Below, piece by piece: positions 2,414-52,460 of a stretch of DNA of 64,000 nt (within the stretch, counting starts at the first letter, position 1; each line of letters begins with the position of its first letter). This stretch comes from Schmidtea polychroa (Eukaryota): positions 217,496,001 through 217,560,000 of the forward strand of contig CM097885.1 in the NCBI GenBank assembly GCA_044892525.1, written 5' to 3'. The notes under the pieces are model-generated. The model was not told the DNA's origin. It was given only the letters and a program-made list of their open reading frames with translations, and searched no databases. The position numbers and the translations under genes are program-made.

Positions 2414-2661
2414 NNNNNNNNNNNNNNNNNNNNNNNNNNNNNNNNNNNNNNNNNNNNNNNNNNNNNNNNNNNNNNNNNNNNNNNNNNNNNNNNNNNNNNN
2501 NNNNNNNNNNNNNNNNNNNNNNNNNNNNNNNNNNNNNNNNNNNNNNNNNNNNNNNNNNNNNNNNNNNNNNNNNNNNNNNNNNNNNNNNNNNNNNNNNNNN
2601 NNNNNNNNNNNNNNNNNNNNNNNNNNNNNNNNNNNNNNNNNNNNNNNNNNNNNNNNNNNNN
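2414..2661. other. Assembly gap (N run)
   Basis: Run of N; ORFs spanning it are artefacts. Confidence 0.99.
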
Positions 2662-4160: not shown

Positions 4161-4581
4161 ATCTACCTACTGACAACGGAGTGCACGACCTTCTTATGGT
4201 TTTGAAAAGGATATCAAGGCAATTCTGGATGACAATGTATTTTAATATAAAAACGACTCTAGTTGATCACGTGCAATGAATTAATTTATAGACCAATTTG
4301 GTTCAGGTTTTATAATGCAACTGTTTACATATTGATTGATTTACTTGAGTATGCTTCCATGACTGCGCTGACAGTGGCTAGCTACTCATCCATGGAAAAT
4401 AAATTCTCAAATCATAGTTCTGAATTTAATCAACCGGAGCTGGAGACAATTTGATTGGTTATTGTTATCCAGTTGATATTATTAATGCAAGCAAATAATA
4501 GCTATGTTCTGTTAGTATGTTGAATATTTCATCAATTATAATGCTTTTGATTTCGTGAGAATTTTTTTATCATAATAAAAA

Positions 4582-15524: not shown

Positions 15525-16520
15525 TAGCTCCCCGCAGCAACCTCCCCTGGGAGGGGGCTACTGCAGAATTTTTTTTTACTTTTTGGTTACGTAACTGCTG
15601 TGGAGTACTGCACTTATTTTTTCTGTGATTTTCAATAGAAAAACGGTTCTATAGAAAAAAAAGCCATGATTTTTCTGACTATAGTGTGGGGGTCTCCTTG
15701 GTTCTGGGATTTACAATACAAAAAAGGTCTATAAAAAAAGACATGATTTCTCTGACTATGGTGAAGGGGTATCCTTGGTCCTGGGGTTTTCAATACAAAA
15801 TCCGATTCTCGTTAAAAAAGCAAAGATTTTTCTAAGTAAATTAAGGTGAGTCTCCTTGGTACTGAGATTTTCAATACAAAAAGGGGGTCTTCACTAAAAA
15901 ATCGTGGTAAATTAAGGGCTCAAATAGGTAAATTAAGGTCTAAAATTTAAAATTACAGTAAATTATGGGAAAAAATTTAAAATTGAAGTAAATTATGGGT
16001 TCAGATAAGTAAATTAGGGTCTTGAATTTAAAATTAAAATAAATTGATGTCTAAAAATTGAATTAAAGTAAATTATGGTCTAAAATTTTTAATTAAAGTA
16101 AATCAATGGATATATTTGGTAAACAAGGGCTACATTTTAAAGTTAAGTAAATTAAGGTAAAATTTTAAAATTAAGTAATCAATGGTCTAGAATTTTAAAT
16201 AAGTAAATTAAAGTTAAAAATTTTAAATTTAAGTAAATTAAAGAAAGATTTTTAAATTTATTAACAAAAAGTTTGAATAACCACCAACTTTTTGAGAAAT
16301 GTAATTTTTTAATGAAAATTTTTATGAAATAATTTTAAAAGATAATTTTAAATGGAAATTTTATGAAATATTTTTCAAATGACAATTTCAGATGCAAATC
16401 TTTGTGAATTAATCAATGACCACATGAAATTATTTGTTAAATATGTAAATAAGAGTTATATTTGGTAAATAAGTAAATGAAGGACTAAATTTTAAAATTA
16501 AGTAAAAAATTTTGAATTAT
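15525..16520 (-). repeat. Inverted copy of the AT-rich repeat arm seen at 2662-4160
   Basis: gactatagtgtgggggtctccttgg is the near reverse complement of the motif near 3890-3920. Same subrepeats. Confidence 0.6.
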
Positions 16521-16926
16521 TATGAGAATGTTCGTGGCACCCTCTGGTAAAAAAAATCTTCATTTTAGATGCATGTTGAGCTATAGACCCGTGTTGGGCT
16601 GAGTCGAAAATTTAATCGTTGAAAAATAAGAAAGTAGGGAAGTAGAACATTAAGAAAAATAAAAATAAAATAAATAAAATCAGAAATAAAATAGAATAAG
16701 GTATAAGGAAAATAATAATTAAGACATAAGAATTAAAACAAAAAATAAAATTAAGAAAAGATTAAAATAGAACAAGTTGACAAATAAATAAAGAGGAATT
16801 CAAGAAATAATAAGGAAATTAAGGAAATAAATAGAAAAACATATTAAAAATAAAGAAAATAAGGAGAAAACAACCTAAAAACAAGAAAATTATATTAAAT
16901 TAATAGAAATAAGCGGTACTCAACTC

Positions 16927-17060
16927 TGATTGGTCCGCACAAATAAGAATTTGATATATATACAACTACCAAAAACATTAAATTTACTGTTAACCCCGAG
17001 CATTTCATAGGTAAGAAAAAATGTTTACTGTTTTGACTGTTAACCCCGAGCATTTCATAG
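16927..17060 (+). promoter_or_regulatory. LTR core promoter: inverted CCAAT, TATA-like box, predicted TSS 16986, 25-nt exon 1 and 50-nt intron 17011-17060
   Basis: ctgATTGG at ~16927-16933 and TATATA at 16955, 31 nt before 16986. AG|GTAAGA donor at 17011 and TTTCATAG acceptor at 17060. The same geometry occurs in the diverged solo LTR (TATA 58878, TSS 58848). Confidence 0.6.
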
Positions 17061-19466
17061 ACATCTACAACTCACGGAGACTTATTTCAAGGATCAGCAA
17101 TACAAGTAGAGCAACAGTTAATTCGAAAAACTTCACAGCAATTCGAACTCAGTCACAGCAATCGACATTCGACGAATTATCATCAGACTAATTTGGAACG
17201 ACTAACGTTAATTTTCCGATTCAGCCTAATTCCATAGTAAGGGATTTTTATTTATGATATTGTTTTTCGAAGTTAATAGTAAATATGTATATTTAATGAG
17301 TAATTAAACTTTTAAATTTAACCAGACTCTCTTTTCATTTGATCCTGAATAACGATTTTGATAAAGTAAATAATTTAAATGTTTAAAAGTATGTGTTGGT
17401 AACAGGTGAACTCTTACATAATTTTTATGGATATTTATTTTGAAGTGATAGTTTTATGATTTCTAATATTAACGAGTAACGTGGAGTTGAGATACTCCAT
17501 GTCATGGTATGAGGTGCCTTCGGGAGCTCAGCCGGTGGACATGGAGTATTTCAATCACGCAGCTAGATTGGGCCGAAATGTGAAGGCTTCTTCACGGGTC
17601 CAATTGCTGAAGGACTTAAAATCTGTCAGAGTACCGAAATATAGACCGAAAGGAAACCTTATGAAATTTTCGAAAATAGGATATGTGCTTCACAGCGACT
17701 GAGGGAGTTCTCATATTAACTCTGTATTGTCCAGAGTCGTCTTACAAGACATTCATGCCACTTCTGTCTATAAATCCGAACTTACCATGTGGGGGAAAAT
17801 ACCATTAAACATCCATCGCTGGTTTTTCCAACATATCGAGAAGTTGAAATTGCATTCGGTAGACTTTTGAAAAAGTAAATCTAATTTAGGTCATCTCTTT
17901 CAGATGCGACATCCAAATCTTAGCATATGATGAGGAATTTACAATAAAGGAAAAGTAAAACATAAAACCACAATAATACTGTATTCAATCACATATATTA
18001 ACAAAATCTGGTAATACCCATTGAATAATTTTCATGCTGTTGCGTCGAAATATCCACTACTGAAATATGCTTCATAGAGTCTAGTTGGCTGGTTCGTAGA
18101 GATCTTCCATCGTTCAAAAGCATCCAATATTGAGGAAATTACGAGTCGTAGTAAATAAATCCAACATCATAAGCTCAGATGGGAATCGACACGCGATGTA
18201 ACATTTGCAGTTCGCTCAGTACGGTTGATAGTTACAGATAAAATTTCCATCGAATAGGCACCCATACATACAGACATACTGCTAACATAACTATGAGTAG
18301 CGTCATCCGGTCAGAAATATGCATGAGAAACAGCAGAATCATTCCGAATGCCTCTCACCGCAGGGAATGCCGCCATGTGTCACCCTCTCTAGGATTCTTA
18401 GTGTGTGAGTAGTAATCAGTGGTCCTATTAGATAATGCTGACATGAGATGTGACTTCCAGATGACTGACTCTTAAATTTCACTACTGATAAAGGCCATTC
18501 GTACCACTAAAAAGATAAGCCAAATAACCAGTAACCGACTACTAAGATAAGGGACTCTCTAAAGTGCACTCATTAAAGATAATTTTGCTTAAATTAAATA
18601 TTCTAATTAAAAATCGAAATTGTTGAAGGGGTATTTTAATTAATAACCGAAAATTCAAACCAAACTTTATAACTAAACCATAGGAAGTTTTACCTAAGTG
18701 TTGTAGAGGTTTATCGTAATTCTAATTAGATGTTACAAATAATAGTAGTAGCCTTCGAGCCAAATTTAAATTAACTAAAGTATCTACAGGAATTTTTGGG
18801 TTATAAAATAGCTAGTAATATTGTAGTTAAATTTCTCATATTCCCTGTAAATGACGTATTGTAATAGAAAACTAAATCCGATAACAAATTATTATGTAAT
18901 TACAATATTTTTACGATGCTATATTTCTACGACGATATCACCGTATGGTATGGATAAGGGGTAATCATAAAATAGTGACGTATAGTTTATACGAAATTAC
19001 GAGTTGTTACTTATTCCGCTACTTGAGGTAAGGGTGCAAGTTTTTACTAGTTGCATTTGGTCCAAAAACCTTATTTTGCATTAGAATAACAACAAATAAT
19101 CAGCGAAATTTAAACGAAGTGTCGTATAGTGTATTTGTAATGAAACAGGGTTATTCGCTCCGGTATGAATAAATCCGTAAATTGCCTTTATGTGCGATAG
19201 ATAGAAATCCAACTCGAACGCGATAGACGAAAATTAAAATTTTTACAAATAATTTGCATTCGTCAGGGAAGCAATCAGGGCGTTGGGGAATAATTTTCAG
19301 TAAAGGATACGTAAAATATTAGTAATCAAGGGTGAAGGGAGGGATCCTGTTTCATCGACTCGTCTTGTTTTCTTCCAGCACTAAGTATCCAATAGCGAAT
19401 AAACCGTATATCTGATCCGAAATTTTTAGATATAGTCACCATAGTTTTCTTCTTTAGCCATCCATT

Positions 19467-20219
19467 ATGTTATCAAACAACAAATCAGCTCTACGTCCCT
19501 GCTTCTCCTGCTCAGATAAAAATGCAGTGATTAAAGATCTTCAAGCCCAGATCGGTCGATATAAACGAAAAATCGACGAGCTGGAAGGGACATGGTTTAG
19601 TCCCGCTCGGATGAAGGAGATCCAAAAGAAGCTCGATCGTAGCGAGCATTGCCGGGACGCGCTAATATCTGAGAGCCGTGCCCAAAGAAGTCTAATCAGA
19701 GAACAATCCGAGGCACTGCATAAGGTTTACGTGCAGGCGGCTACAACCCGAAAAATTGTGCAGATTCCCATCCGAGAGGCCGATGACATCTTTCCGCCTC
19801 ATCACAACCTTTCCTCGAATCCATCTCCACCGTTCAAGAGACCGTGCCGAGACTGCGTCGAAACCGAATTTTCCCCCAAGCGACCAGATGTTGTCGTCAC
19901 GGGTACCAGTAAGCCCCCCAATGCTAGTCCATCTGTATCAGTCACCCTTCTGCAAGTGGCATCTTCAAGCAAACCCAAGCGCAAACAACTCTCTCGTGCG
20001 GAGCGCAAGAAGAGACAGCGCGAACGCGCCACTACCAAGCCAAACATCCCATCAATAGAGGACTCAACCAACGGTGGCAACTCTCACGTGTCCATCGACC
20101 TAACAACGGGACCCTCAGCGCGAATCATATCAGCCGCTGGCGTAACGTGGGAAGAGAACGCTTCCGAGTTTTTTAACCTCGACGAATTATTCGCCGACGC
20201 TGAATGGGAGAAACAATAA
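19467..20219 (+). CDS. LTR-encoded 250-aa protein of unknown function (CxxC, coiled coil, basic NLS-like tract, acidic C-terminus)
   Basis: Intact in both LTRs; homolog in the solo LTR. Preceded by a pyrimidine tract and AG (19456-19457); AATAAA at 20343. Confidence 0.8.
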   Translation: MLSNNKSALRPCFSCSDKNAVIKDLQAQIGRYKRKIDELEGTWFSPARMKEIQKKLDRSEHCRDALISESRAQRSLIREQSEALHKVYVQAATTRKIVQIPIREADDIFPPHHNLSSNPSPPFKRPCRDCVETEFSPKRPDVVVTGTSKPPNASPSVSVTLLQVASSSKPKRKQLSRAERKKRQRERATTKPNIPSIEDSTNGGNSHVSIDLTTGPSARIISAAGVTWEENASEFFNLDELFADAEWEKQ

Positions 20220-20760
20220 AACCCCAGTGGCGGTCAGGATGAAGAACAAGGATCCGATCTATGTTGATTATGATGTTTTCTCTTCTTTCGACAAACATTA
20301 GTAAAGTGTACAGCTGAATCCTTGTGTCATAACGTTGAAATTAATAAATCTTGTTGTCTTACACGTTTTCGCTCATGAATAACTAGACTTTAATTAAGTG
20401 GGTTGAGTAGAGAACCCGCCAGATCTAGTGAGAAATTCCCAATTTGTATTCAGCGAATCCTGATAAGTGGTTGTGTAAGGAAATGGACGTAAGCCCTTCT
20501 AACGGCAGTCGTGAATGGGAAGTCGAGGCCTCAGCAAGGAGTAGTTTTAAGGCAGAAGCTCACCTGCTTGTTGGCGTCTCGCCTGCATAGTGCAGTACCA
20601 ACGTGAAGTGATTCACGGGCACTATGTTGGAAGAAAGTTATGTGGGGTTTCACTCCAGGTTGACAAATCGGTGGCACCTTTTATTCGAGATGGACAATCA
20701 ACCCTTAGACCCGTCAACATGGTAGAGTGGTCAGCCGAGGTGTAACCCCAACATGATTTT

Positions 20761-20778
20761 TGGGGGCTCAGCCGGGAT
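20761..20778 (+). promoter_or_regulatory. Primer-binding site, tRNA-Pro type
   Basis: TGGGGGCTCAGCCGGGAT matches the classical tRNA-Pro PBS TGGGGGCTCGTCCGGGAT at 16/18 and starts 7 nt after the LTR end. Confidence 0.85.
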
Positions 20779-21091
20779 CTACAATCGATCGAAATTTCTA
20801 TTAACGAATGCGAAATTCACCGGGATTTTCATAAAAAATTAAAGGGATTTATCACATCGATTTTCTGTTTCCAACCGACCATTGCTTGACGAATGCAAAT
20901 TGACTATTGATTATTAACTTATATTAGGAACTAAGTAGAGAAAATCAAAATGTAGATAATAGAAAAATTAAGGATATAAATAAAGGAGATAAAGTAGTCA
21001 AATTAAATAATTAACAATGGTTAAAGAAACCAATTAACGAATTAACTATTAATTTACTACATATTATTAAAACATTACTTTTCCAACAGCT

Positions 21092-21577
21092 ATGACAGAA
21101 TTCGCGAACCAAATGCAACAACTGCTCAAGTTTATCGATATAGAAAACGACTCCCTAACAACACTGACGCATAAAAGAGAAAAAATCAACGCGATATTAC
21201 TGCAAGCAATCGGACAAACACCAGTCGTACCTAATCATATGATATTAGCCACAGGCCTAAGTCGCCCAGATGGAAAAATAAACCCCGAAACCGTATATCA
21301 GTGGTATCAAGAGAGATTGAACCACCCAACATTAAATCTAGATTATCAGCGTCTAAAAGACTCACTAAATACAATACCAGATGCAATCGAACAAAAAATA
21401 CAGGAAAAAATTAACCAATTACGAACTTGTATAGCCTGCAAACTCCGTCCTATTCGCGTATTATTCTTGCCGTGTGGACACCTCAGTCACTGTGAAGCGT
21501 GTGTAAAAGACCTAAAAAGATGCACGATGTGCAAATATGAAATAAAAGAGACCCATATGGTCTATTATGGCGAATGA
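21092..21577 (+). CDS. 161-aa protein with C-terminal IAP-type (C3HC4) RING finger, no BIR
   Basis: CIACKLRPIRVLFLPCGHLSHCEACVKDLKRCTMC at the extreme C-terminus. Acceptor ttttccaacag lies 2 nt before the ATG; AATAAA at 21682. Confidence 0.85.
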   Translation: MTEFANQMQQLLKFIDIENDSLTTLTHKREKINAILLQAIGQTPVVPNHMILATGLSRPDGKINPETVYQWYQERLNHPTLNLDYQRLKDSLNTIPDAIEQKIQEKINQLRTCIACKLRPIRVLFLPCGHLSHCEACVKDLKRCTMCKYEIKETHMVYYGE

Positions 21578-22180
21578 AACGGCCGGCGATGTAACAGCAA
21601 GTATACGATGTTTGAACAAGAATGCATGAAATTGTTGAAGTAACACGTACTGTTAATGATTCAATCTTTATGTTTATGATAAATAAATCCGTCTTTAAAA
21701 AGTTTTGATGATTAGGACTAATAAAATTTGCATGACGAATGAATATTTGCGTGTTTGTTTTGTTTTAATTTTTTTTTCGGAATCAAATGAAGAGAGGGTT
21801 GAATAACGTGGAATTAGTCCCAATATAGACTGCAGGGGTACAAACCGAGCCACCTTCGGGCGGTACGTCTTATTGCAAGAACCCGTTGGGAGGGGATAAC
21901 TGATCAACCCAAGTAAGAAGCGTAGGGCGGGGTACCATCGCATATGATGAGAAGTTTTTGCGACATGACTGATCACCATGCCAATGTAGAAATGGATCAT
22001 CGCGATCGTCGTGCGTTTTGAGCAAGGGGGGAAAGGGGAAACACTCCCAAGCGGTAAAGATTAAGTCGACAAATTAAAAGTAGACAGAGAAAATGGTAAA
22101 CTAGAGTAAAAGAAGAAAAAGAGAAATAGAAGCATGCAGAGCGAGGAATATTGAAGCCGAGCAGTCGAATAATCCAGCCG

Positions 22181-22669
22181 GAAGGAGGAAGATTGAGCTG
22201 TTGAATAGTGCCAGCCAGTCGTAAGGTCGAGTCGTGAAAAGTCCAACCGATCAAGAAGGAGGAAGATTGAGCTGTTGAATAGTGCCAGCCAGTCGTAAGG
22301 TCGAGTTGTGAAAAGTCCAACCGATCAAGAAGGAGGAAGATTGAGCTGTTGAATAGTGCCAGCCAGTCGTAAGATCGAGTTGTTGAATAGTCCAACCGAT
22401 CAGGAAGGAGGAAGATTGAGCTGTTGAATAGTGCCAGCCAGTCGTAAGATCGAGTTGTTGAATAGTCCAACCGATCAGAAGGAAGAAGATTGAGCTGTTG
22501 AATAGTGCCAGCCAGTCGTAAGATCGAGTTGTTGAATAGTCCAACCGATCAGAAGGAAGAAGATTGAGCTGTTGAATAGTGCCAGCCAGTCGTAAGGTCG
22601 AGTTGTGAAAAGTCCAACCGATCAGGAAGGAAGAAGATTGAGCTGTTGAATAGTGCCAGCCAGTCGTAA
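22181..22669 (+). repeat. Tandem array, 74-75-bp unit x ~6.6, in the element's 5' leader
   Basis: Units start at 22181, 22255, 22329, 22404, 22478, 22552 and 22626. Each unit is an internal dimer (gagctgttgaatagtgcca / gagttgttgaatagtcca). Confidence 0.95.
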
Positions 22670-23979
22670 AGGCCTAGAAAAGCGAGAGATAGCAGTTAAG
22701 CTACAATGAGATAATATTTAAATTACTAGTGATATGGAATATTAAAGCTAGCTAGAACAAATTGAATGTAATTTTGAAAATTCGAGTTTAGAGAGGAAAT
22801 AAACGAGCTCGTGGAAAAGAAAATAGGATTATAATGAAAAAGGAAAGGGAAGAAGGAAACGAATTAAAGAGATAATAGAAAATAAAGAATAGATGAAACG
22901 ATGATAATGAGTAAAGAGGAAAGTAACTAACTAACTAAAGGGATCCCAGTGAAGTAGAGAAACTCTACGGAATATTTTTTTTTGGTTAAACCGGGAAAAT
23001 GCATTTTATTGGTTCCAGAGTAGAACCGAGCTTAATAATAGTGAATATGAAAAGTAAAATAGCGACAACAGCGCAAAAGGATTAGGAAAATGAAAGGGGG
23101 GTAATAAGCAGAGACCGACAACGACCTATTTTTACTATAATTGATAACGAATAGATAATTATTACGACTTTATAGATAATTGTTACTACCCCATATAGAT
23201 AATTTAAAATCGACGGAAAATACGGGCTGATGGGATATTATAAACCGCAGACAGGATTTCACAAAAGATAGGGGAAGCACAAACAGAAACCTAAAAGGTG
23301 TCTGTTTTTGAATGTTGTAGAAAGAATGATGAAGTCGTGTAAGCAAATGCAACACGAGATCATTTTTTCATTTTAGATATCAAGCCAATCCAGCCAACCA
23401 AGACAATCCAGAACCTGCACAAAAGGAATTCGAAGAAAATCGACAATCAACCAAGGATAAATCCATTCAGAACCCGCACCGAGAGACACAGCAACCGGAA
23501 GACTCCAGAACGGAAGAAGTATTAGCAGCCATCTGCCAAGGATTAGTAAATCTCCTCAGGATCTCAGTAGCAGATTCATACAGAATATTTATCGAAGGAA
23601 ACACAATCAGAACCGAACGCGTCCAATTCAATAGCCACTAATTACCAAGAAGCGTAAGAAAGGAATCACGGATAAACCCAATCTTAGATCTTCTAGTAAG
23701 CCAGGAGACGTATTATTTTCAGGAGACGAATTACAACAACTCAAGAGAGGACGATCCATTAAACATCAAAGAGGAATATCACAAGGATCCAGAAGAACCA
23801 ATCAAGTACCCATATTCGACCAAGAAAATCTCGGATATACCCCTAGTCGATCTCGAAGTAGAGAAAGTCTGTCCGATATCACTAATAGTTTAGCAACGTC
23901 AACCGAGGAATTATCAGCCCAAAGTTTAGTCACATCGTTAGACAATTTAAAAGAAACAGACGAACCTAGAACACCAATC

Positions 23980-26900
23980 ATGACGAATGTCGTAAAAACC
24001 GACGAGTATAAAGAGAAGTTCAGAGGAGAACCGTTCAACGGAAATGCAAACAAGCTAGCAACGTTCATAACTAATTTTGAAGTTTATATCACTGTGTGTG
24101 GATGGACACCCGAAGCAATTAGTAAAAGGATGCCGTTGTTTTTGTGCGATAGTGCATTAGAGGTATATTTAGAAGCTAAAGAGAGAGACACGAAATTAGA
24201 AAAGTGGGAAGATATTAAAACATTCCTGAAGAAAACCTTCGGAGCCAGTAAGCCAATCAACCAGGCGTTGGGCGAACTAGCAAATAGGAAACAAAGAGCA
24301 AACGAATCGATAACATTATATGCCAGTGAATTGCGGAGATTAGCGAAGAAAGCAATGAATGGAAAATTACCCGAAGAAAATCTGATCGGTTATTTCATAG
24401 AGGGATTACGCCGAGAAGAAGTAAGAGCCTCAGTAGGTTGTCAAATGTGCAAAACATTAGAGGAAGCCATAGATTGGGCTACAAGATGCGAGCTCCACCT
24501 TCCAGCTCAAATGAATCTTATGCAAGAGGAGGGAAGGATAGCGACAGCAATAGCGAAAGCGGATAACGGAGATAACAACAATCAAGAACCGAAAATGAAT
24601 CAATTTATACCAGGAGCGCACCAAATTTTCAAACCACCACAAGGACGATCAAACGGGAATAATGGTAATCGTAACAACCCGAATAATGAGAACAATTTCA
24701 ATAATCGGCGAAATATGAACGATAACAAGCAGTGCCGAACATGCGGTAAACCAGGACACTGGGACAGAGATTGTTATAGAAATTCAAATTGTAATCGTTG
24801 CGGACGGCGTGGACATACCGAAAATGTATGCCAATTGCGAGGCTGTTTTAACTGTGGTCAGCCAGGTCACATCTCCAGAGATTGCCGAGAAAGGGGCCAA
24901 CAACAACGACCACCACAGCGAAATAATAATTATATAGCGAATCCGCAACGACAAAGTAACCCTAACGAAGGAAAACAAATGAACGTTATGCAGGAAATTT
25001 CGCAGATGAAACAGATGATGCAACAAATGATGAGACCAAGACAAGAATCAGCACCACAACAAACCCAGAATATACGTATGATGAGGAGTACCGAAAATCT
25101 CAACAATTATGAAGTGCATCAACATGTACAAGAATGGCAAAGGCTACAGGCCGAGGAAGAGAGGATAAAACAAGAACGCAACCAACAACGACAAGAACAA
25201 CCATTGCGAATAAATATGATGAAGTTAGTAAAAGACATGAAGAGCCAGTATTGCTACAATTACGGGAAAAGCCCAAGGGTAGTACCCATGACTGAACCAG
25301 AAAAAGTAAAGGAAATAACAACGGAAATGAAAACAGAGAATTCAACCACGATTTCAAAAGGAAACCAGAGAATTCAGAAAATATTCTGGAAAAAGATAAA
25401 GGATAAAATCGAAAAAGAACATAATAAAGCGAAAACCGAGACAGAAGATGAAAATAACAAGAGCGAGGAACAAACCAGTCAACTAAATCACCAAATGCTA
25501 CAAGAATCAGAATCAGAAGAAACAACAATATTCGAAAGAAAGAAACTAAAGAGAGTACCAAGGATGAGAAACTTGCAAATCAATATGATGAAAAGGACAA
25601 AAGATGTAGCATCGTCAGACGAAGAAGAAGATTATGTAAGTAGTTTGGGTGGAGAAATACTACAGCCGAATGAAATAAGCGAACCCTCAAAAGGGGAAAT
25701 CAAAGAGGAAGAAAGCGGAAACGAGATAACCAGTGAAAGTGAAGACGAAGATATCGAAATAAAGTTGAGAAAAGCAAGGGAGGAAGCGATAAAACAGGTA
25801 GCCGAAATACTCCCAGTAGTAGTGAGGAACCAAGAGTTCATCGACGTAATACCATTCAGGCGATTCGTGCAAAAAGTGATGAAATTGGAAAGAAACGAGA
25901 AAGATCTAATACCAAACGAGGAAAAATCAATTATAAAAAATTATATGGAAAAAATGAAGCAGGCCGATACCACGCGGTATGTAATAAAAATTGGAACGAG
26001 TAGAGGACTTGAAAGAATGTGGATAAAAAATACAGTCACCGACGAACTTTTCGATTGGATACGAGAACATTTGGGAAGTTCGAGAAAGAAAGAATATCTG
26101 TATCAATACCAAGGAGAACAGATCAAACCAGATATGCACTTAGTAGATGCACTAATATGGCCAGGAGAAACGCAAATACTGAAGTTGCATAAAGAAAAAC
26201 AACTAGCCAACCTTTACGACTGGGCTAAAGATGCCAAGGCAGAATATGATTTTAATATCAAATTGAAATTAGAACAAATAAAACAATGTACTCTGAGACG
26301 AAACCTGGATAAGCTGATCAAACAAATTCAAGAACAAGTAGAAGACAACTGGGATTTACTCATCACCAGACGAGCCCCAGCCATGTACGAACTAATGAGC
26401 CGGTTGCGAGATACAGAAATGCTCCGAATGAGTGATTGGAGAACCATAAATTTGATCCACAAATATGGAAGGTTAAGAGAAACCCAGCCACAGAGGTTGG
26501 AAATAACCATATGGTTACCGAACGAAGAAAAACGACGAATAAAAATGAGCAATCAGAGTACAGTGGATGACTTGGTATCAAAAATAAACCAAGAGATAAC
26601 GGAAAAGGTACGTAGCGAAAGTAGTGATGGTATGGTGGATGATGTAGTCATGATGTACGATAAGATAATATTACGAGCGGAGGACGACACCTCGTTAAGC
26701 GAAATGGGTATGTGGGACAATCATCAGATAATCAGGATAGTACCAATGGATGAATTCCGAACAAGAGATGTAACATATCAAAAAGAAATACGAGACCGGA
26801 TGAAAACGTTGTATCAAAAATCTACAGAAATAATTGAAATCCACCAACAATGGTTAAAAGAAAAAGAGCTACAAGGAAAAATCACGAAATTAAATACCAG

Positions 26901-37833: not shown

Positions 37834-37969
37834 AAAGGAATATGACTGTATATAATTGTAAAAAGTAAGTATATCTTATGTATATAACAGTACTATATCT
37901 TTATATAAGCGCGGTATCAATATTATACAATAACGGGAATCATAAAATAAAACTAAATTTACATAAGAG

Positions 37970-38353
37970 TTGAAAAGTGTATATAAATTAGGAATGGATC
38001 AAGGAAATAACGAAATGAACCACAATACAGTAACTGAAGAATTATGGAAGCAACAATGTGCCGTATTAGCACAATTAGTGTCCAATTTGCAAGAACAAGG
38101 ATTGACGATGCACAGAAACCTGATCGAGAGTATGAACAGAGGATTTAGTTATTTGAAGATAATTGAAGACCAGAGGTTAAAAATCGAACAAATGCAAAGA
38201 GAGATAGAGAGGATAACCCAATATAGCCGTCGACAGGAAATTGAAATAGACCGAATGAGGGAGGAAGCAGAACAGATAGAAATAGAAGACTGGTCGGAAT
38301 GGCTAATGAATAGAGAGGAGAGCGGACACGAAGCCGACTCTTCCGAACCCTAA
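37970..38353 (+). CDS. Small coiled-coil accessory protein (probable start ATG 37994)
   Basis: E/Q/R-rich heptads; AG 2 nt before ATG 37994. Confidence 0.65.
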   Translation: MKSVYKLGMDQGNNEMNHNTVTEELWKQQCAVLAQLVSNLQEQGLTMHRNLIESMNRGFSYLKIIEDQRLKIEQMQREIERITQYSRRQEIEIDRMREEAEQIEIEDWSEWLMNREESGHEADSSEP

Positions 38354-38438
38354 ACCAAACCTAGCTTAAAATGTAAATAATTGTAAATAAAATATCGAAC
38401 CTGTATCGATAAGAACTACTTGTACATATAATTATAGA

Positions 38439-39827
38439 ATGGATAAACGACAAAGAGAAGAGTTCAGAGAGATTGTCGAGCAAGTCCGAAAATCTACAAC
38501 GATCAGAATACACAAACATGTTATGTGCGGAATATGTGAAAAGTTGTTAAAGGAACCTCACCAAACGCAATGTGGATGCCGAGCATGTAAAGAATGTATC
38601 AGTGAAGCAATAAAGAATAGACCACAGAGGTGCCCGGTGTGCAAAGAGACACTAATATCGAGTTTAGAAGACACTAACGAGGATAAAGCCGCAGTGAAAG
38701 ACATGTTAAACACCAACCTGGGATGCAAAAATGCCCCATGCGAATGGAAAGGAGTAATATGGAAGGTAGTACAACATATGGGAGAATGTATGTACAGAAT
38801 TGGCCAGTGTGAAAGGTGCCATAAAACCATTCGAGCAAGCGAAGAAAAAGAGCATCAAAGGCAGTGTGAGGAGAGATTGGAAAGATGTGAACACTGTGGA
38901 GAAATAGATACGTGGATAAATCTCACCCTCAAACATCACAATGTCCAAGAGGAGAGAGTATGTGCGGAGTTCAGTGGGGAATGCCCAAACGGATGTAACC
39001 AAGGGGAAATAATGAAGGTGGCACAGCATCTAAGGGAATGCGAAAAGAAAAGAATGACATGTGTACTAGGTAGATGGGGTTGTCAGAAATTACTACACCG
39101 AGGTGAGTTACCACATCATTTAGTAGAAAATGCTTCAACTCACGCAGAAATGTGGTCGACTGCGTTACGAGAAAGCGAAGAGAAAGTAAAACAAATGGAG
39201 ATAGAGATAACATCGTTGAAAGTGTTAGTCAAAGAACTACTAGAAGAAAGGGAAGCGTTCGAAGAAGCCCGAGCAAACATAAAGATGCAAATAAACCGAA
39301 TAGAAATCAGTAATAATCAGGCCAAGGAGCTACATCAGAAAATACGGGAAATAAATCTAAATGAGATAACCCCAACAGCACCCTACATATGGAAAATAAC
39401 GGGAGTAAAAGAAAGAATACGAAAAGCAAAAACCGGAGAAGAGACAAGAATAACAAGTCCTGCATTCCATTCTTGGAAAAATGGGTACAAAATGAAAATG
39501 AAGATATATCCCAACGGGGACGGAACCGGATTAGATACGCACTTTTCGATTTTCTTTCTATTATGTAAAGGAGAATACGACGAAATATTAGAATGGCCGT
39601 TCCAGGCAAAAATCGATATTACTCTGATGAACAACCAAAGTATACATGAGCAAAGCTTCAAAACAACGGGGAATCAAATAGCTTACCAGAGGCCCCTCAA
39701 CGAAGAAGGATCAGCAACAGGAGCACCTACGTTCATCTCACAACAAAGAGTAGAAGATATGGCGAGAAATGATACCATATATATCAAGATGACCGTGAGG
39801 AAAGAGGAGAAGGGTAGAACGGAGTAA
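38439..39827 (+). CDS. TRAF: Full-length TRAF homolog (RING, TRAF zinc fingers, coiled coil, MATH/TRAF-C)
   Basis: CGIC..L.EP.QT.CG.R.C..C..CPVC RING; repeated CxxC/HxxxC fingers; MATH motifs YIWKI, SPAF...GYKM...YPNGDG...HFSIFF...GEYDEILEWPF, GAPTFI, DTIYIK. Confidence 0.95.
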   Translation: MDKRQREEFREIVEQVRKSTTIRIHKHVMCGICEKLLKEPHQTQCGCRACKECISEAIKNRPQRCPVCKETLISSLEDTNEDKAAVKDMLNTNLGCKNAPCEWKGVIWKVVQHMGECMYRIGQCERCHKTIRASEEKEHQRQCEERLERCEHCGEIDTWINLTLKHHNVQEERVCAEFSGECPNGCNQGEIMKVAQHLRECEKKRMTCVLGRWGCQKLLHRGELPHHLVENASTHAEMWSTALRESEEKVKQMEIEITSLKVLVKELLEEREAFEEARANIKMQINRIEISNNQAKELHQKIREINLNEITPTAPYIWKITGVKERIRKAKTGEETRITSPAFHSWKNGYKMKMKIYPNGDGTGLDTHFSIFFLLCKGEYDEILEWPFQAKIDITLMNNQSIHEQSFKTTGNQIAYQRPLNEEGSATGAPTFISQQRVEDMARNDTIYIKMTVRKEEKGRTE

Positions 39828-40020
39828 CCAATCGAATAATGTGGTATATAATAATCTGTATATATCGGTGTATATAACCAATAAAATATTATATAATAAT
39901 AGTATGAAAACCCTAAATACGAAAACCCAAAAATGATGCGAAAATTCCCCAAGAAACAGTAAATAATGAATAAATTCCTTTTTCATAATAAAAAGATTAA
40001 TCGATGTCTATGATTTAGAG

Positions 40021-41076
40021 ATGACACAAGAGAAAATAACCGAAACTGCGATAGACCCAACCAAGGTCAACAAGACACAAATTCCCCGAGAACATAACAA
40101 AAAATGGAACAAAGTAATGTTCCAACTAACTAATCTCACCCGAAATCACATCGAAGAAACTAGAGAAGATGAGAATAGTCAATACCAATGGTTAATACAC
40201 AACTTAAGAGCGGAAGCAGAAGCATGCAAAAGAGCATCAAAATGGGCGTCACTGGAAAATACCCGCCAAGAAGCACACAGCCACTACTTAAAGCAGCTGG
40301 TGCAGGAAGCGAGAAAGAGACTTACCGATGAGAACACCAAGCGCGAAGCGGAAAAACAAATAGCAGACAGGAAAATGATGCACTTAGTGGCAGAAGCGAG
40401 GAAATGGAAAAGACAAAACAGAGAAATGAAAAAAGAGATGAAAGAATTGCCCATGAGACTCGGATATGAAAGCGAACAAGGTAAATGGGAGGAGAATTTA
40501 ATAATAAAGGAAGAATTGAAAAGGTTGAGAAAGGTCGCCGCCCGAAGCCAAACCTGGCAAACAAAGGCTATGGAGTTTGAGCGACATTTGGCAATGAAGT
40601 GCGACATAAGAGAGCACGAGAATGCCGCAATGGAAGAGATGATAACCCAACAAGCGGGACGGGTTGTGGAATTAGTAAATCAGGTAGAAGAGATGAAAAG
40701 AGACCTTAATGGATTACAAGGATCGCTGGAACAAAGAAACATGGTCCTAGCGGGAAAAAACAAAAAATTAGAAAACGAAAGGAAAATGTACACCGAAAAT
40801 ATTAAAAACTTAGAAATAGAAATTGAAAAATGGAAGGGCGACGAGAAAGTCAAGGCCCTAGACAAACAGATAGAGGCGAAAGATGAAGAGACAAGGTATC
40901 TCACCTATCTGCTCGACGAGGAATTGAATATCACTCGAGCTCTAAGAGACGAAGTTAGTGAATTGAGAGCTCAAATTCCCCAATATTACCTACCATACGA
41001 CCCTATTGCGATACAGTTACATTCCGCGGTCGATAGTGATGAAGGTTATGTAGGCCAGGAGGAAACCTTCGTATGA
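40021..41076 (+). CDS. 351-aa long coiled-coil accessory protein
   Basis: Intact ORF with continuous charged heptads; no recognisable catalytic motif. Confidence 0.75.
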   Translation: MTQEKITETAIDPTKVNKTQIPREHNKKWNKVMFQLTNLTRNHIEETREDENSQYQWLIHNLRAEAEACKRASKWASLENTRQEAHSHYLKQLVQEARKRLTDENTKREAEKQIADRKMMHLVAEARKWKRQNREMKKEMKELPMRLGYESEQGKWEENLIIKEELKRLRKVAARSQTWQTKAMEFERHLAMKCDIREHENAAMEEMITQQAGRVVELVNQVEEMKRDLNGLQGSLEQRNMVLAGKNKKLENERKMYTENIKNLEIEIEKWKGDEKVKALDKQIEAKDEETRYLTYLLDEELNITRALRDEVSELRAQIPQYYLPYDPIAIQLHSAVDSDEGYVGQEETFV

Positions 41077-41245
41077 GGGTGGATGAAAAGATGAAAAACT
41101 AAAAACCGGGACGTATATCCCAAACAAAAAAATTAAAGTACAGTAAAAGTATTTGAGGGACTGTAACCCTGTGTAAATAAAAACGATATAAATGTATAAG
41201 TATAAGTCGCACTGTAGCGCATGATTAATTGTAAATATTATAGAT

Positions 41246-41944
41246 ATGAAAATCGAGGAAATGATAGAAATTATGAGCGACGTAGAAGAGGGAGAGATTG
41301 AGGCAGAAACAACAGAAACACAAACGCTAAAGGCCGAGTTACGGGAAGAGAAATACGAAAACGGGAGATTAATAAACAAATACCTGGAGGACCGGAAAAT
41401 GATAAAGGTGTTAAAGAAAGAGTGCGAAGCGTTGGGGGAAATAAAAAGAGAAGCGGAAGAGGAAAATGAATGGCTACACGAACAAAGGAAGCGAGGGAAA
41501 AACTGGGAAAAGATAGCGGAAGAACTATGGAAAGAGAGGGCAAGCTTCAAAGCAAAGGAGGTAATCCAAGACTACTGGAAAACTGAGGCGAAGGAGCGCC
41601 AAACAGCTATAAATAAATTAAAACGACCTCTAGAAGAAAACCAACGGGAAAGTAAAGAAATGAGGAAGTGGGTCCGCAAATATAGAGAAATAGAAAGAAA
41701 ACATCAACAACAAAATTACCTGCAAGAAAACGAACAAGATCTCCTACAAATCGAGCTAAAAAGAAACCTTGAAAAGAAAAGGGAAGAAATTAGACGCTTG
41801 GAAAAAGAAATTAGACATCTAAAGAAAGAAGCCCGTGAAAAAGACCGACAATTGGAAATGCTGCCCGAGTTAAGACACAGGGTAATTAAAGCAGAGTCCA
41901 CCTTGATGAGAATCGGCGAAAATAATCCAAATCAGAACCATTAA
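41246..41944 (+). CDS. 232-aa coiled-coil accessory protein
   Basis: Intact ORF, E/K/R-rich heptads. Confidence 0.75.
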   Translation: MKIEEMIEIMSDVEEGEIEAETTETQTLKAELREEKYENGRLINKYLEDRKMIKVLKKECEALGEIKREAEEENEWLHEQRKRGKNWEKIAEELWKERASFKAKEVIQDYWKTEAKERQTAINKLKRPLEENQRESKEMRKWVRKYREIERKHQQQNYLQENEQDLLQIELKRNLEKKREEIRRLEKEIRHLKKEAREKDRQLEMLPELRHRVIKAESTLMRIGENNPNQNH

Positions 41945-41984
41945 ATTAAGGGTCATTAAAACCAATTGTAAATAAACATAATGA

Positions 41985-42653
41985 ATGTATAATAGTATCA
42001 TGCGAGGCGAGATGATGATAACAATGATGGTATTGATGATTCTGATGGAGAGCAAACCAATAGACGCCCAACCGAAAATAGTACGAGATTATCGAAATCA
42101 AAATCAAGAACCTAAACAAGAATCCGGTCAATGCACATACCCGATGACCGTAAAAACCCATATCATCCAAACCATTCAATCAACCCGATCACACATCAAC
42201 AACATCCAAACAATGTGTAAAAAGAATCCCATTTGTAAAATGATAAACAAACAAATCCTCGAACAAATCCAACAATTCGACCAGTTGGAACAACAAATGC
42301 AACAAGAGAATTTTGGAAATCTGGTAGAAAAGCCAAAAATACCTCCCGAAATCAATGACACCCATTATCTCATATATGTGGTGATCGCAGAAACCCTCCT
42401 CCTATGTCTACCAATATTCATGAAAATTTACGAAGTTCGAAATAGATGTAGAGTCTCGACATCAATAAGAGTAACCTCGAACCAAAATCCTCAAGAAGTG
42501 CCCCTGACAAATCTTAACCCAACCCCATTCCGACCTCGAACCCCGAGTAATCAACCAATCCAGCCGAAATCTAATAGTCAGACCTATCTCAACATTAATA
42601 CCCAAACCAACCAACAGCCGCCAGCAGAAGCATCAATGGTTAACAGTTCATAA
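41985..42653 (+). CDS. Type I membrane protein (signal peptide, Cys/coiled-coil ectodomain, TM, Pro/Gln-rich tail); probable start 42000
   Basis: MMITMMVLMILM..IDA|Q signal, 3 Cys, NDT sequon, TM YLIYVVIAETLLLCLPIFM. AATAAA at 42760 is followed by a GU/U-rich tract. Confidence 0.75.
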   Translation: MYNSIMRGEMMITMMVLMILMESKPIDAQPKIVRDYRNQNQEPKQESGQCTYPMTVKTHIIQTIQSTRSHINNIQTMCKKNPICKMINKQILEQIQQFDQLEQQMQQENFGNLVEKPKIPPEINDTHYLIYVVIAETLLLCLPIFMKIYEVRNRCRVSTSIRVTSNQNPQEVPLTNLNPTPFRPRTPSNQPIQPKSNSQTYLNINTQTNQQPPAEASMVNSS

Positions 42654-42878
42654 ACTCTAACTCAAACATTTGTGTTATTATATGTGGAAACTTTTATTGT
42701 ATGTACAAACTATCACCTTAAGTGATACTTGCTTGATCTTGCTTTGACCTTGATCTTACAATAAAAATTTTATCATTGTTGTATAATTTTCGTGTTCGTG
42801 TTATATTTTTTTTTGAATGAATGAATTAAGTTAATTATGCAATTGCGGGACGCAATTTTGATGGGTCCCCGAGTGATT

Positions 42879-45800
42879 TGTTGGGCTGAGTCGAAAATTT
42901 AATCGTTGAAAAATAAGAAAGTAGGGAAGTAGAACATTAAGAAAAATAAAAATAAAATAAATAAAATCAGAAATAAAATAGAATAAGGTATAAGGAAAAT
43001 AATAATTAAGACATAAGAATTAAAACAAAAAATAAAATTAAGAAAAGATTAAAATAGAACAAGTTGACAAATAAATAAAGAGGAATTCAAGAAATAATAA
43101 GGAAATTAAGGAAATAAATAGAAAAACATATTAAAAATAAAGAAAATAAGGAGAAAACAACCTAAAAACAAGAAAATTATATTAAATTAATAGAAATAAG
43201 CGGTACTCAACTCTGATTGGTCCGCACAAATAAGAATTTGATATATATACAACTACCAAAAACATTAAATTTACTGTTAACCCCGAGCATTTCATAGGTA
43301 AGAAAAAATGTTTACTGTTTTGACTGTTAACCCCGAGCATTTCATAGACATCTACAACTCACGGAGACTTATTTCAAGGATCAGCAATACAAGTAGAGCA
43401 ACAGTTAATTCGAAAAACTTCACAGCAATTCGAACTCAGTCACAGCAATCGACATTCGACGAATTATCATCAGACTAATTTGGAACGACTAACGTTAATT
43501 TTCCGATTCAGCCTAATTCCATAGTAAGGGATTTTTATTTATGATATTGTTTTTCGAAGTTAATAGTAAATATGTATATTTAATGAGTAATTAAACTTTT
43601 AAATTTAACCAGACTCTCTTTTCATTTGATCCTGAATAACGATTTTGATAAAGTAAATAATTTAAATGTTTAAAAGTATGTGTTGGTAACAGGTGAACTC
43701 TTACATAATTTTTATGGATATTTATTTTGAAGTGATAGTTTTATGATTTCTAATATTAACGAGTAACGTGGAGTTGAGATACTCCATGTCATGGTATGAG
43801 GTGCCTTCGGGAGCTCAGCCGGTGGACATGGAGTATTTCAATCACGCAGCTAGATTGGGCCGAAATGTGAAGGCTTCTTCACGGGTCCAATTGCTGAAGG
43901 ACTTAAAATCTGTCAGAGTACCGAAATATAGACCGAAAGGAAACCTTATGAAATTTTCGAAAATAGGATATGTGCTTCACAGCGACTGAGGGAGTTCTCA
44001 TATTAACTCTGTATTGTCCAGAGTCGTCTTACAAGACATTCATGCCACTTCTGTCTATAAATCCGAACTTACCATGTGGGGGAAAATACCATTAAACATC
44101 CATCGCTGGTTTTTCCAACATATCGAGAAGTTGAAATTGCATTCGGTAGACTTTTGAAAAAGTAAATCTAATTTAGGTCATCTCTTTCAGATGCGACATC
44201 CAAATCTTAGCATATGATGAGGAATTTACAATAAAGGAAAAGTAAAACATAAAACCACAATAATACTGTATTCAATCACATATATTAACAAAATCTGGTA
44301 ATACCCATTGAATAATTTTCATGCTGTTGCGTCGAAATATCCACTACTGAAATATGCTTCATAGAGTCTAGTTGGCTGGTTCGTAGAGATCTTCCATCGT
44401 TCAAAAGCATCCAATATTGAGGAAATTACGAGTCGTAGTAAATAAATCCAACATCATAAGCTCAGATGGGAATCGACACGCGATGTAACATTTGCAGTTC
44501 GCTCAGTACGGTTGATAGTTACAGATAAAATTTCCATCGAATAGGCACCCATACATACAGACATACTGCTAACATAACTATGAGTAGCGTCATCCGGTCA
44601 GAAATATGCATGAGAAACAGCAGAATCATTCCGAATGCCTCTCACCGCAGGGAATGCCGCCATGTGTCACCCTCTCTAGGATTCTTAGTGTGTGAGTAGT
44701 AATCAGTGGTCCTATTAGATAATGCTGACATGAGATGTGACTTCCAGATGACTGACTCTTAAATTTCACTACTGATAAAGGCCATTCGTACCACTAAAAA
44801 GATAAGCCAAATAACCAGTAACCGACTACTAAGATAAGGGACTCTCTAAAGTGCACTCATTAAAGATAATTTTGCTTAAATTAAATATTCTAATTAAAAA
44901 TCGAAATTGTTGAAGGGGTATTTTAATTAATAACCGAAAATTCAAACCAAACTTTATAACTAAACCATAGGAAGTTTTACCTAAGTGTTGTAGAGGTTTA
45001 TCGTAATTCTAATTAGATGTTACAAATAATAGTAGTAGCCTTCGAGCCAAATTTAAATTAACTAAAGTATCTACAGGAATTTTTGGGTTATAAAATAGCT
45101 AGTAATATTGTAGTTAAATTTCTCATATTCCCTGTAAATGACGTATTGTAATAGAAAACTAAATCCGATAACAAATTATTATGTAATTACAATATTTTTA
45201 CGATGCTATATTTCTACGACGATATCACCGTATGGTATGGATAAGGGGTAATCATAAAATAGTGACGTATAGTTTATACGAAATTACGAGTTGTTACTTA
45301 TTCCGCTACTTGAGGTAAGGGTGCAAGTTTTTACTAGTTGCATTTGGTCCAAAAACCTTATTTTGCATTAGAATAACAACAAATAATCAGCGAAATTTAA
45401 ACGAAGTGTCGTATAGTGTATTTGTAATGAAACAGGGTTATTCGCTCCGGTATGAATAAATCCGTAAATTGCCTTTATGTGCGATAGATAGAAATCCAAC
45501 TCGAACGCGATAGACGAAAATTAAAATTTTTACAAATAATTTGCATTCGTCAGGGAAGCAATCAGGGCGTTGGGGAATAATTTTCAGTAAAGGATACGTA
45601 AAATATTAGTAATCAAGGGTGAAGGGAGGGATCCTGTTTCATCGACTCGTCTTGTTTTCTTCCAGCACTAAGTATCCAATAGCGAATAAACCGTATATCT
45701 GATCCGAAATTTTTAGATATAGTCACCATAGTTTTCTTCTTTAGCCATCCATTATGTTATCAAACAACAAATCAGCTCTACGTCCCTGCTTCTCCTGCTC

Positions 45801-47040
45801 AGATAAAAATGCAGTGATTAAAGATCTTCAAGCCCAGATCGGTCGATATAAACGAAAAATCGACGAGCTGGAAGGGACATGGTTTAGTCCCGCTCGGATG
45901 AAGGAGATCCAAAAGAAGCTCGATCGTAGCGAGCATTGCCGGGACGCGCTAATATCTGAGAGCCGTGCCCAAAGAAGTCTAATCAGAGAACAATCCGAGG
46001 CACTGCATAAGGTTTACGTGCAGGCGGCTACAACCCGAAAAATTGTGCAGATTCCCATCCGAGAGGCCGATGACATCTTTCCGCCTCATCACAACCTTTC
46101 CTCGAATCCATCTCCACCGTTCAAGAGACCGTGCCGAGACTGCGTCGAAACCGAATTTTCCCCCAAGCGACCAGATGTTGTCGTCACGGGTACCAGTAAG
46201 CCCCCCAATGCTAGTCCATCTGTATCAGTCACCCTTCTGCAAGTGGCATCTTCAAGCAAACCCAAGCGCAAACAACTCTCTCGTGCGGAGCGCAAGAAGA
46301 GACAGCGCGAACGCGCCACTACCAAGCCAAACATCCCATCAATAGAGGACTCAACCAACGGTGGCAACTCTCACGTGTCCATCAACCTAACAACGGGACC
46401 CTCAGCGCGAATCATATCAGCCGCTGGCGTAACGTGGGAAGAGAACGCTTCCGAGTTTTTTAACCTCGACGAATTATTCGCCGACGCTGAATGGGAGAAA
46501 CAATAAAACCCCAGTGGCGGTCAGGATGAAGAACAAGGATCCGATCTATGTTGATTATGATGTTTTCTCTTCTTTCGACAAACATTAGTAAAGTGTACAG
46601 CTGAATCCTTGTGTCATAACGTTGAAATTAATAAATCTTGTTGTCTTACACGTTTTCGCTCATGAATAACTAGACTTTAATTAAGTGGGTTGAGTAGAGA
46701 ACCCGCCAGATCTAGTGAGAAATTCCCAATTTGTATTCAGCGAATCCTGATAAGTGGTTGTGTAAGGAAATGGACGTAAGCCCTTCTAACGGCAGTCGTG
46801 AATGGGAAGTCGAGGCCTCAGCAAGGAGTAGTTTTAAGGCAGAAGCTCACCTGCTTGCTGGCGTCTCGCCTGCATAGTGCAGTACCAACGTGAAGTGATT
46901 CACGGGCACTATGTTGGAAGAAAGTTATGTGGGGTTTCACTCCAGGTTGACAAATCGGTGGCACCTTTTATTCGAGATGGACAATCAACCCTTAGACCCG
47001 TCAACATGGTAGAGTGGTCAGCCGAGGTGTAACCCCAACA
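42879..47040 (+). repeat. 3' LTR (4,162 bp)
   Basis: Matches the 5' LTR; ends CCCCAACA followed by TSD CCCG. Confidence 0.97.
45754..46506 (+). CDS. 3' LTR copy of the 250-aa LTR protein
   Basis: Identical to 19467-20219 except one D>N change. Confidence 0.8.
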   Translation: MLSNNKSALRPCFSCSDKNAVIKDLQAQIGRYKRKIDELEGTWFSPARMKEIQKKLDRSEHCRDALISESRAQRSLIREQSEALHKVYVQAATTRKIVQIPIREADDIFPPHHNLSSNPSPPFKRPCRDCVETEFSPKRPDVVVTGTSKPPNASPSVSVTLLQVASSSKPKRKQLSRAERKKRQRERATTKPNIPSIEDSTNGGNSHVSINLTTGPSARIISAAGVTWEENASEFFNLDELFADAEWEKQ

Positions 47041-52258: not shown

Positions 52259-52460
52259 TTTAAATATTTGTTTGGTTTTGGTATTAGCTTATGAAACTAT
52301 TTATATTATTATATAATACTTATATTCAAACAATTAAATAAAGTTTTTATTTTTTAAATATTATTAAATTGTTTTAAAATTTAATAATTTATTTTATAAT
52401 TTTCACTAGTTTTTAAAATTTATAAAAATTGTAACTTTTGTGTTATTTAAAATATTTAGG

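Follow-up and report, generated by a model that had tools for sequence, protein, structure and literature searches.

Within a 64,000-nucleotide stretch of the planarian Schmidtea polychroa genome (GenBank assembly GCA_044892525.1, contig CM097885.1, positions 217,496,001 to 217,560,000 of the forward strand; hereafter the window), we identified a 30,449-bp element at 16592-47040, with a long terminal repeat (LTR) at each end and a target-site duplication. We consider it probable that this is a recent, autonomous Burro-type Ty3/Gypsy element whose Bcl-2-like, TRAF and RING proteins likely blunt stress and death signalling in the producer cell, and whose envelope protein (Env) likely serves movement from cell to cell in the animal. 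This reading draws on the element's structure, youth, copies and domain content, on the selection acting upon it and on motifs in its spacers; the steps that assign roles are inferred. The kind of system is already known, and what is added here is purifying selection on the cargo, clusters of the motif TGTAHATA in the spacers, and satellites without Pol. Coordinates are those of the window, and all features of the element are on its forward (+) strand.

A young Ty3/Gypsy element with the Burro layout

The two LTRs (16592-20753 and 42879-47040) are 4,162 bp each, have TG..CA ends, and differ by 2 mismatches when compared using blastn (99.95% identity), while the duplicated target site, CCCG, is found at 16588-16591 and 47041-47044. 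These are the limits proposed in a preliminary description, which was made from the letters of the window, and all of the reading frames named there are open. With 2 LTR differences and an intact structure, the copy is very young. An 18-nt primer-binding site (20761-20778) begins 7 nt past the 5' LTR, nucleotides 20754-20760 separating it from the terminal CA, and is complementary to the 3' end of host tRNA-Pro(TGG) genes; genomic RNA would be primed by this tRNA and then integrated with a 4-bp duplication. The tRNA-Pro(TGG) genes themselves stand in a tandem array with a 475-bp period (C1:130901009 onward, locus L021), and the pattern has 2,164 matches genome-wide. No purine tract precedes the 3' LTR (42841-42878), where we instead find a conserved 49-bp block that spans the LTR start (42841-42889) and is 92-94% identical in the Pol-less satellites described below. 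A search of Rfam returned 0 matches. Near the LTR end, a conserved block with a hairpin-like palindrome (~20480-20640) is common to the LTRs of the window, sister and satellite copies and in part to those of a sibling family, LTRs that do not align elsewhere.

The TG..CA LTRs, the target duplication, the tRNA primer site and the order of protease (PR), reverse transcriptase (RT), RNase H (RH) and integrase (IN), with their catalytic motifs, place the element by sequence among the Ty3/Gypsy LTR retrotransposons (Metaviridae) and not in the Retroviridae. Its layout resembles that of the planarian Burro elements. As described in PMC6431247, Burro/GYPSM1 exceeds 30 kb and has a 4,873-aa open reading frame (ORF) with Gag, MATH_TRAF, Ubi/SUMO-like and BCL2-like domains, Env in frame before PR-RT-RH-IN, BIR and ankyrin; the same text regards Burro elements as probable proviruses that have integrated, and suggests that they interfere with the host's apoptosis and ubiquitination. 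Burro1/GYPSM1 and Burro2-4 of Schmidtea mediterranea and a Burro-like element of Dugesia tigrina are likewise given there as longer than 30 kb, with LTRs and a high copy number, and as having an ORF of ~4,700-5,100 aa with Gag, Ubi/SUMO-like, BCL2-like, Env before PR-RT-RH-IN, ankyrin, MATH/TRAF and accessory ORFs, all of which the element in the window shows as well, the Ubi/SUMO-like and BCL2-like domains as putative ones. This element is over 30 kb long and high in copy number, and has a single giant ORF with Env between Gag/BCL2-like and the protease and with ankyrin repeats after the integrase, the MATH/TRAF component being supplied by an accessory full-length TRAF.

Judged from the described layout rather than from consensus sequences, we therefore class it as Burro-type but, because it has no MATH in ORF1 and no BIR, not as Burro1, which is described with both (PMC6431247). 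Its whole RING-zinc finger-MATH TRAF is a downstream gene of its own, whereas the D. tigrina element is described with an upstream accessory MATH (PMC6431247). Relatives of the element in this genome have RT identities to it of 98%, 88% and 50%. The family at 88%, here called the sibling family, has the Burro1 layout, with a 4,791-aa frame that includes MATH, a BIR-RING gene and a separate 487-aa TRAF (L005-L008, C1:21530001-21570000); its gene order is the same as the element's and its Env is 57% identical. In more compact relatives Env is 36-38% identical.

A class III Env with signal and transmembrane (TM) flanks ahead of Pol is also the arrangement of the gB-type GAG-ENV-POL errantiviruses, which PMC13524379 reports from a planarian (for example Smed_errantivirus_1 and _2). 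Those of the Platyhelminthes (HSV/gB-type) have a Ty3/Gypsy Pol, a class III gB-like Env before it and many intact copies, as here. LTR pairs separated by more than 14 kb were left out of that survey, whereas the element is 30 kb long with a cargo cassette, and the word 'accessory' is absent from its main text (PMC13524379).

Against this background, the strong form of the first proposal, an infectious giant retrovirus of a new kind whose cassette would act against NF-kB and apoptosis as in large DNA viruses, is highly unlikely. The class III Env is intact and constrained, and the cargo set exceeds the published domain list; both would suit such a virus. The preliminary description already noted that Bcl-2 and ankyrin had been reported in Burro. 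However, Env, Ubi/SUMO-like, MATH_TRAF and BIR domains, the provirus and the ideas on apoptosis and ubiquitination are in print in the same source (PMC6431247), which refutes 'new kind', and the Ty3/Gypsy Pol order with a gB-type Env matches the published errantiviruses (PMC13524379). The proposed link between the ankyrin repeats, as IkB-like, and NF-kB lacks support, since according to PMC13563047 no clear homologs of NF-kB have been identified in S. mediterranea. Our own Rel-domain search for a host NF-kB gave no match, but was run without a positive control and is uninformative.

In complex retroviruses and adenovirus late units, one leader is spliced to many acceptors, and poxviruses, herpesviruses and baculoviruses carry Bcl-2, ankyrin and inhibitor of apoptosis (IAP) genes. 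The element resembles these systems by analogy only (acceptor-like sites ahead of the accessory genes, an ORF within the LTR, and death regulators of host origin), its replication module being unrelated to theirs.

Domains of the polyprotein and the accessory genes

A single frame of 4,732 codons (23635-37833) encodes the polyprotein. In it we identified Gag with CCHC knuckles (23980-24924; PF03732, PF00098), three putative ubiquitin-like (Ubl) domains (25927-26199, 26482-26754 and 27427-27654), a Bcl-2-like helical domain (28192-28704), an internal signal-like segment followed by a class III (gB/chuvirus-type) Env ectodomain and its TM segment at aa 2293-2311 (28771-30567), protease, RT, RNase H and integrase (31168-34554; Pfam matches, with DTGA and YIDD motifs), an ankyrin-repeat region (34702-36504) and a C-terminal membrane module (36820-37833). 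Env, which has 16 cysteines and sits in frame between Gag and protease, matches the viral fusion glycoprotein family PF24664 at E 2e-70, and the repeats match Ank_2 at E 2e-16, and both of these identifications are solid; with that of Gag/Pol, they agree with what had been read from the sequence. Between PR and RT, Pfam gave no match to a dUTPase-like domain at E up to 0.1; the published Burro call used HHpred. A protein-database search with the polyprotein region matched 0 of 4,290 candidates.

The Ubl and Bcl-2-like assignments of the preliminary description stood in part. A pooled Ubl profile, in which a relative's Pfam-ubiquitin domain was included, matches ubiquitin, ISG15 and ubiquilin, and Ubl3 alone gives weak ubiquitin-fold matches (7 of 8 hits, E 0.3-0.8); Ubl1 and Ubl2 searched singly gave no ubiquitin-fold match, and none of the three has a di-glycine end. 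Taken alone, the Bcl-2-like domain reaches E 0.078 in Pfam and has no match in the PDB, and its identification is accordingly weak, resting on the BH2-like motif IxxxGGW, which is invariant in 7/7 rows of the alignment. The seven-row profile matches Bcl-xL at E 0.002, over BH2 only, and a BH1 NWGR-like motif is absent. Against the protein database the same profile found 5 fragments, seemingly from related elements, all five of which match Pfam Bcl-2 (E 0.03 to 2.8e-7) and three of which, like the element, have the domain immediately before an Env signal. An AlphaFold model of the domain had low confidence (pLDDT 46) and returned nothing in a fold search, and an Atlas search with the domain gave no usable match.

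The C-terminal module comprises a hydrophobic segment (aa 4396-4414), a predicted beta-rich ectodomain and a TM segment (aa 4660-4678). It matched no family, its AlphaFold model is of low confidence (pLDDT 42), and an FN3-like reading of the ectodomain, made by eye, found no support. Because signal-like and TM segments alternate along the polyprotein (aa ~1713-1733, 2293-2311, 4396-4414 and 4660-4678), it likely crosses the endoplasmic reticulum membrane in the manner of the polyproteins of enveloped RNA viruses; it would be threaded through by these segments and cut by its own protease and by signal peptidase. The Env signal follows immediately on the Bcl-2-like domain, and cleavage would leave this signal as a tail anchor on that domain.

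Outside the polyprotein lie the accessory genes. An ORF at 21092-21577 (161 aa) ends in an IAP-type RING (PF13920, E 7e-11; top PDB match the cIAP2 RING, E 5e-10). No BIR was found in the 13 ORFs scanned, and the protein thus shares with IAPs the RING only. Downstream of the polyprotein, a 119-aa coiled-coil-like ORF (37994-38353) is followed by an intronless, full-length TRAF of 462 aa (38439-39827) with RING, zinc fingers, coiled coil and MATH, for which the top PDB matches are TRAF2 (MATH, E 1e-28) and TRAF6 (RING-zinc finger, E 2e-14); a protein-database search with it gave 1 match among 3,988 candidates. On these matches the TRAF and IAP-type RING identifications are solid, as first described. 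Two coiled-coil ORFs (CC1, 40021-41076; CC2, 41246-41944) and a fast-evolving single-pass membrane protein (41985-42653; TM at aa 128-146), referred to as the TM ORF, complete the cassette. The TM ORF matched no family; it and the polyprotein C-terminus account for the two further membrane proteins that had been noticed. Finally, the LTR itself encodes an ORF of 250 aa from its first Met (19467-20219, with a second copy in the 3' LTR at 45754-46506), which matches no family and has homologs in the sister and sibling families.

Host TRAF-like genes of planarians, whose expansion has been published (PMC6109357), have the same domain order as the element TRAF (PMC6109357, PMC7586133) and are 23-35% identical to it at the host-like loci that we compared. 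In a tree of MATH domains 1 of 7 inner branches was supported, and because the tree fails to resolve a donor or a direction of capture, we claim neither. Among the host-like TRAF loci, too, several consist of one long frame (459-487 aa), and some of them form tandem pairs (L015-L018); on contig C2 many host-like members stand alongside many element-borne ones. One of these loci, L018, was considered as element cargo beside a host TRAF and rejected, as it has no DNA in common with the sibling family.

Copies of the element and selection on its cargo

A search for the TRAF gene gave 364 candidate matches, and all 40 of those scored are 99-100% identical. The junction of LTR end and primer site occurs exactly 552 times; we sampled the first 40 of 100 listed, ordered by position and all on contig C1. 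Eight belong to the subfamily of the window copy, nine to a sister subfamily (~82% DNA identity), and 23 have no RT, Env or integrase of the family. All 17 coding copies carry the RING ORF, 16 of them carry the TRAF together with the rest of the downstream ORFs, and in 12 the TRAF is whole and open.

Purifying selection across copies had been set beforehand as a test of the cargo. We compared the window copy with six sister-subfamily copies, using a simple counting method to estimate the ratio of non-synonymous to synonymous rates (dN/dS), in which dS was often above 1; the ranges exclude rows covered to less than 50%, rows in which dS was saturated, and two alignments that were spurious (the N-terminal part of the LTR ORF in c1 and the linker in c7). 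The ratio is 0.01 for RT-RH, 0.01-0.04 for the protease-RT-RNase H-integrase region, 0.04-0.05 for Gag and 0.04-0.06 for Env. For the cargo it is 0.02-0.08 (Ubl), 0.03-0.04 (Bcl-2-like), 0.09-0.12 (ankyrin), 0.12-0.13 (TRAF), 0.13-0.17 (C-terminal module) and 0.06-0.23 (coiled-coil ORFs, with 0.08-0.17 for the 119-aa ORF and 0.14-0.23 for CC2), rising to 0.27-0.44 for the LTR ORF, 0.45-0.56 for the N-terminal part of the RING ORF and 0.52-0.72 for the TM ORF. As a control, we read the non-coding LTR as codons in six near-identical copies, where the ratio of non-synonymous to synonymous proportions (pN/pS) was 1.06-1.12; over 7,101 aligned bases there were 131 indels of frame length. The coding modules of six near-identical copies, by comparison, have 0-1 frame-length indels each and a pN/pS mostly below 0.35; values are higher for CC1 (0.68, 10 shared changes), CC2 and the TM ORF, where counts are small. 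The LTR ORF, whose pN/pS is 0.15-0.18 and in which none of 6 copies shows a frameshift, is a genuine gene under constraint, in line with the LTR protein of the preliminary description.

Since neither neutral decay nor absence from the copies was found, the cargo is not neutral baggage but functional for the element. It is hardly credible, then, that the cargo is hitch-hiking host DNA that has yet to decay, an idea refuted for most modules. Such DNA would be in keeping with the youth of the copy and its 2 LTR differences, and also with the TM ORF and the RING N-terminus, whose ratios of 0.45-0.72 have intervals that touch 1 in some pairs; yet dN/dS lies far below 1 at dS above 0.6 for the Ubl, Bcl-2-like, ankyrin, TRAF and coiled-coil ORFs, with the neutral control near 1, and the TRAF is only ~30% identical to host TRAF-like genes. 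Interference with apoptosis and ubiquitination was put forward for Burro as an idea (PMC6431247); the selection data now establish that the element makes use of its cargo.

As to what the cargo is used for, the Bcl-2-like, TRAF and RING proteins likely dampen stress and death signals within the producer cell, and Env likely allows movement between cells of the animal. An anti-death role fits the host TRAF phenotypes, knockdown in planarians being described as raising cleaved caspase-3 (PMC7586133). In S. mediterranea, BURRO1 is reported to be transcribed on loss of PIWI silencing (PMC8532177). Should the cargo indeed influence survival pathways of the host, planarian annotation and RNA interference (RNAi) work could mistake hundreds of TRAF and IAP-like genes carried by such elements for host genes. 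We think it unlikely that the cargo instead helps to assemble and traffic the element itself, through ubiquitin-dependent budding, scaffolding or membrane shaping, without blocking apoptosis or immunity. The Ubl and Bcl-2-like domains are conserved as strongly as Env and protease, which fits structural parts better than arms-race proteins, the BH1 motif is missing, and several ORFs are plain coiled coils; however, the TRAF retains its RING, zinc fingers and receptor-binding MATH, the sibling family retains a BIR-RING IAP and a second MATH, and host TRAFs are described as acting on survival (PMC7586133).

Possible expression signals, satellites and surroundings

The cargo genes downstream of the polyprotein are separated by five A/T-rich spacers (within 37834-41999), each with a terminal AG just ahead of an ATG. 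A YAG lies 0-4 nt ahead of the start ATG in 17/22 accessory ORFs from three families (6/7, 5/7 and 6/8), against 55/533 ATGs in flanking control sequence; in four cases this count starts from the second in-frame Met, and a distance of 0 or 3 can stem from the stop codon itself. A splice-donor-like GTAAG (20489-20493), in the conserved block near the LTR end, is at the same place in the window copy, two sister copies and one satellite, and may provide the donor. The accessory genes would then be expressed from spliced RNAs in which a short LTR leader is joined to the AG before each ATG. A further acceptor-like site (23363-23376) is conserved: each of the 10 copies examined has it, as does the sibling family. 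It is followed by 603 ATG-free nt up to the Gag Met at 23980, and 49 ATGs occur in the 2,623 nt upstream of it. Within the ATG-free stretch, the 115 codons of 23635-23979 are under in-frame constraint (dN/dS ~0.2-0.3 in 5/6 copies, 0.5 in one), which hints at a non-AUG or spliced start. We discarded the idea that trans-splicing supplies the start AUG at the boundary of the frame, because that boundary varies between copies.

The element has 11 sense-strand TGTAHATA sites, every one of them in the five cargo spacers, where 0.26 are expected, and the spacers of the sister and sibling families have 7 each (0.33 and 0.38 expected; p <0.001, 2,000 shuffles). The excess replicates in spacers that do not align to each other, and TGTA is the top 4-mer in the pooled spacers, with a strong strand bias (59 TGTA vs 8 TACA). 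UGUAHAUA is the Pumilio response element, and a PUF gene is present in this genome; the clustered sites may place the cargo RNAs under the control of a host PUF protein. We found no paper on the spacer motif or on Burro satellites in a search that did not extend to subscription papers, Repbase entries or the original Burro paper with its supplements. A forkhead DNA-site reading of the motif fits TGTAAATA variants only and was rejected, yet 7/7 sibling-family sites are TGTAAATA. One sibling-family spacer contains a long poly(A) run. The spacer signals offer concrete and cheap tests of cargo expression.

The cassette could in principle be an operon, with spliced leader (SL) trans-splicing and 3'-end cleavage in each spacer taking the place of cis-splicing from a donor in the LTR. 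It would suit an operon that the spacers measure 40-220 nt and that every ATG has an acceptor-like site, and PMC12582326 describes SL trans-splicing in S. mediterranea and flatworm operon candidates with gaps of up to 300 bp. This is quite improbable in our view, since AATAAA is not enriched in the spacers (p 0.05, 0.70 and 0.39) and planarian poly(A) sites are described as having no upstream UGUA (PMC5068929), two observations that also led us to demote a CFIm/poly(A) reading of the motif. Because flatworm SLs are reported to end in AUG (PMC12582326), which would be out of frame at most acceptors, these being 1, 2 or 4 nt from the ATG, cis-splicing of one LTR leader is likely and is preferred here.

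Several points weigh against the interpretation of the element and its cargo that we favour. The element is known here from its sequence, not from RNA, protein or particles. The sister copies are not independent and, because they go back to one lineage split, amount in effect to one test, with dS near saturation in several modules; and selection shows use, not which use. Among the domains, the single searches with Ubl1 and Ubl2, the limited coverage of the Bcl-xL match and the missing BH1 motif belong on the same side. The donor-like GTAAG is not seen in the sibling family, the constrained frame upstream of the Gag Met is not explained by a plain first-ATG start, and TGTAHATA was picked after the spacers had been viewed. 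In S. mediterranea, BURRO1 RNAi is reported to have left the smedwi-2 phenotype uneased (PMC8532177), and effects at the level of the host are for that reason unproven.

Most of the 23 sampled junctions without the family's Pol and Env are young satellites. At 18 of them, a 3' LTR of their own, which matches the 5' LTR end at 98.4-100% identity, lies 12-15 kb (in one case 23 kb) past the primer site. Thirteen of the 23 encode an 877-aa Gag-only protein, in full or for the most part, that shows 33% identity to the element Gag, and 8 others carry a 74-bp tandem array that the element has in its leader (22180-22669). The satellites have the LTR end, the primer site and the 49-bp block at the 3' LTR start in common with the element. 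From these shared ends they are likely mobilised in trans, borrowing the element's enzymes, and the 74-bp array, marked out by the satellites that carry it, is a candidate packaging signal. Examples on contig C1 (L104/L144, L081/L121) have their own LTRs, a long ORF-free leader and either the 877-aa Gag-only ORF or the 74-bp array only, and at C1:77268872-77323122 five junction matches ~13.55 kb apart form a tandem array with satellite-sized units.

More tentatively, and we hold this to be possible but doubtful, Burro may be a complex endogenous planarian virus with a full expression programme, in which an LTR leader is spliced onto at least 7 accessory genes, a cargo cassette is switched by a host Pumilio protein at clustered UGUAHAUA sites, the Bcl-2-like domain is anchored by the Env signal, second and third surface proteins are made and young Gag-only or non-coding satellites follow along, the whole spreading from cell to cell while holding off death.

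Outside the element, an ORF on the reverse strand (50990-52288) has a ubiquitin C-terminal hydrolase domain (PF00443, E 5e-34). Arrays of A/T-rich repeats of 30-80 bp, inverted and direct, surround the insertion at 2660-3940, 15620-16520 and 49730-50400, and are possibly the ends of older DNA elements.

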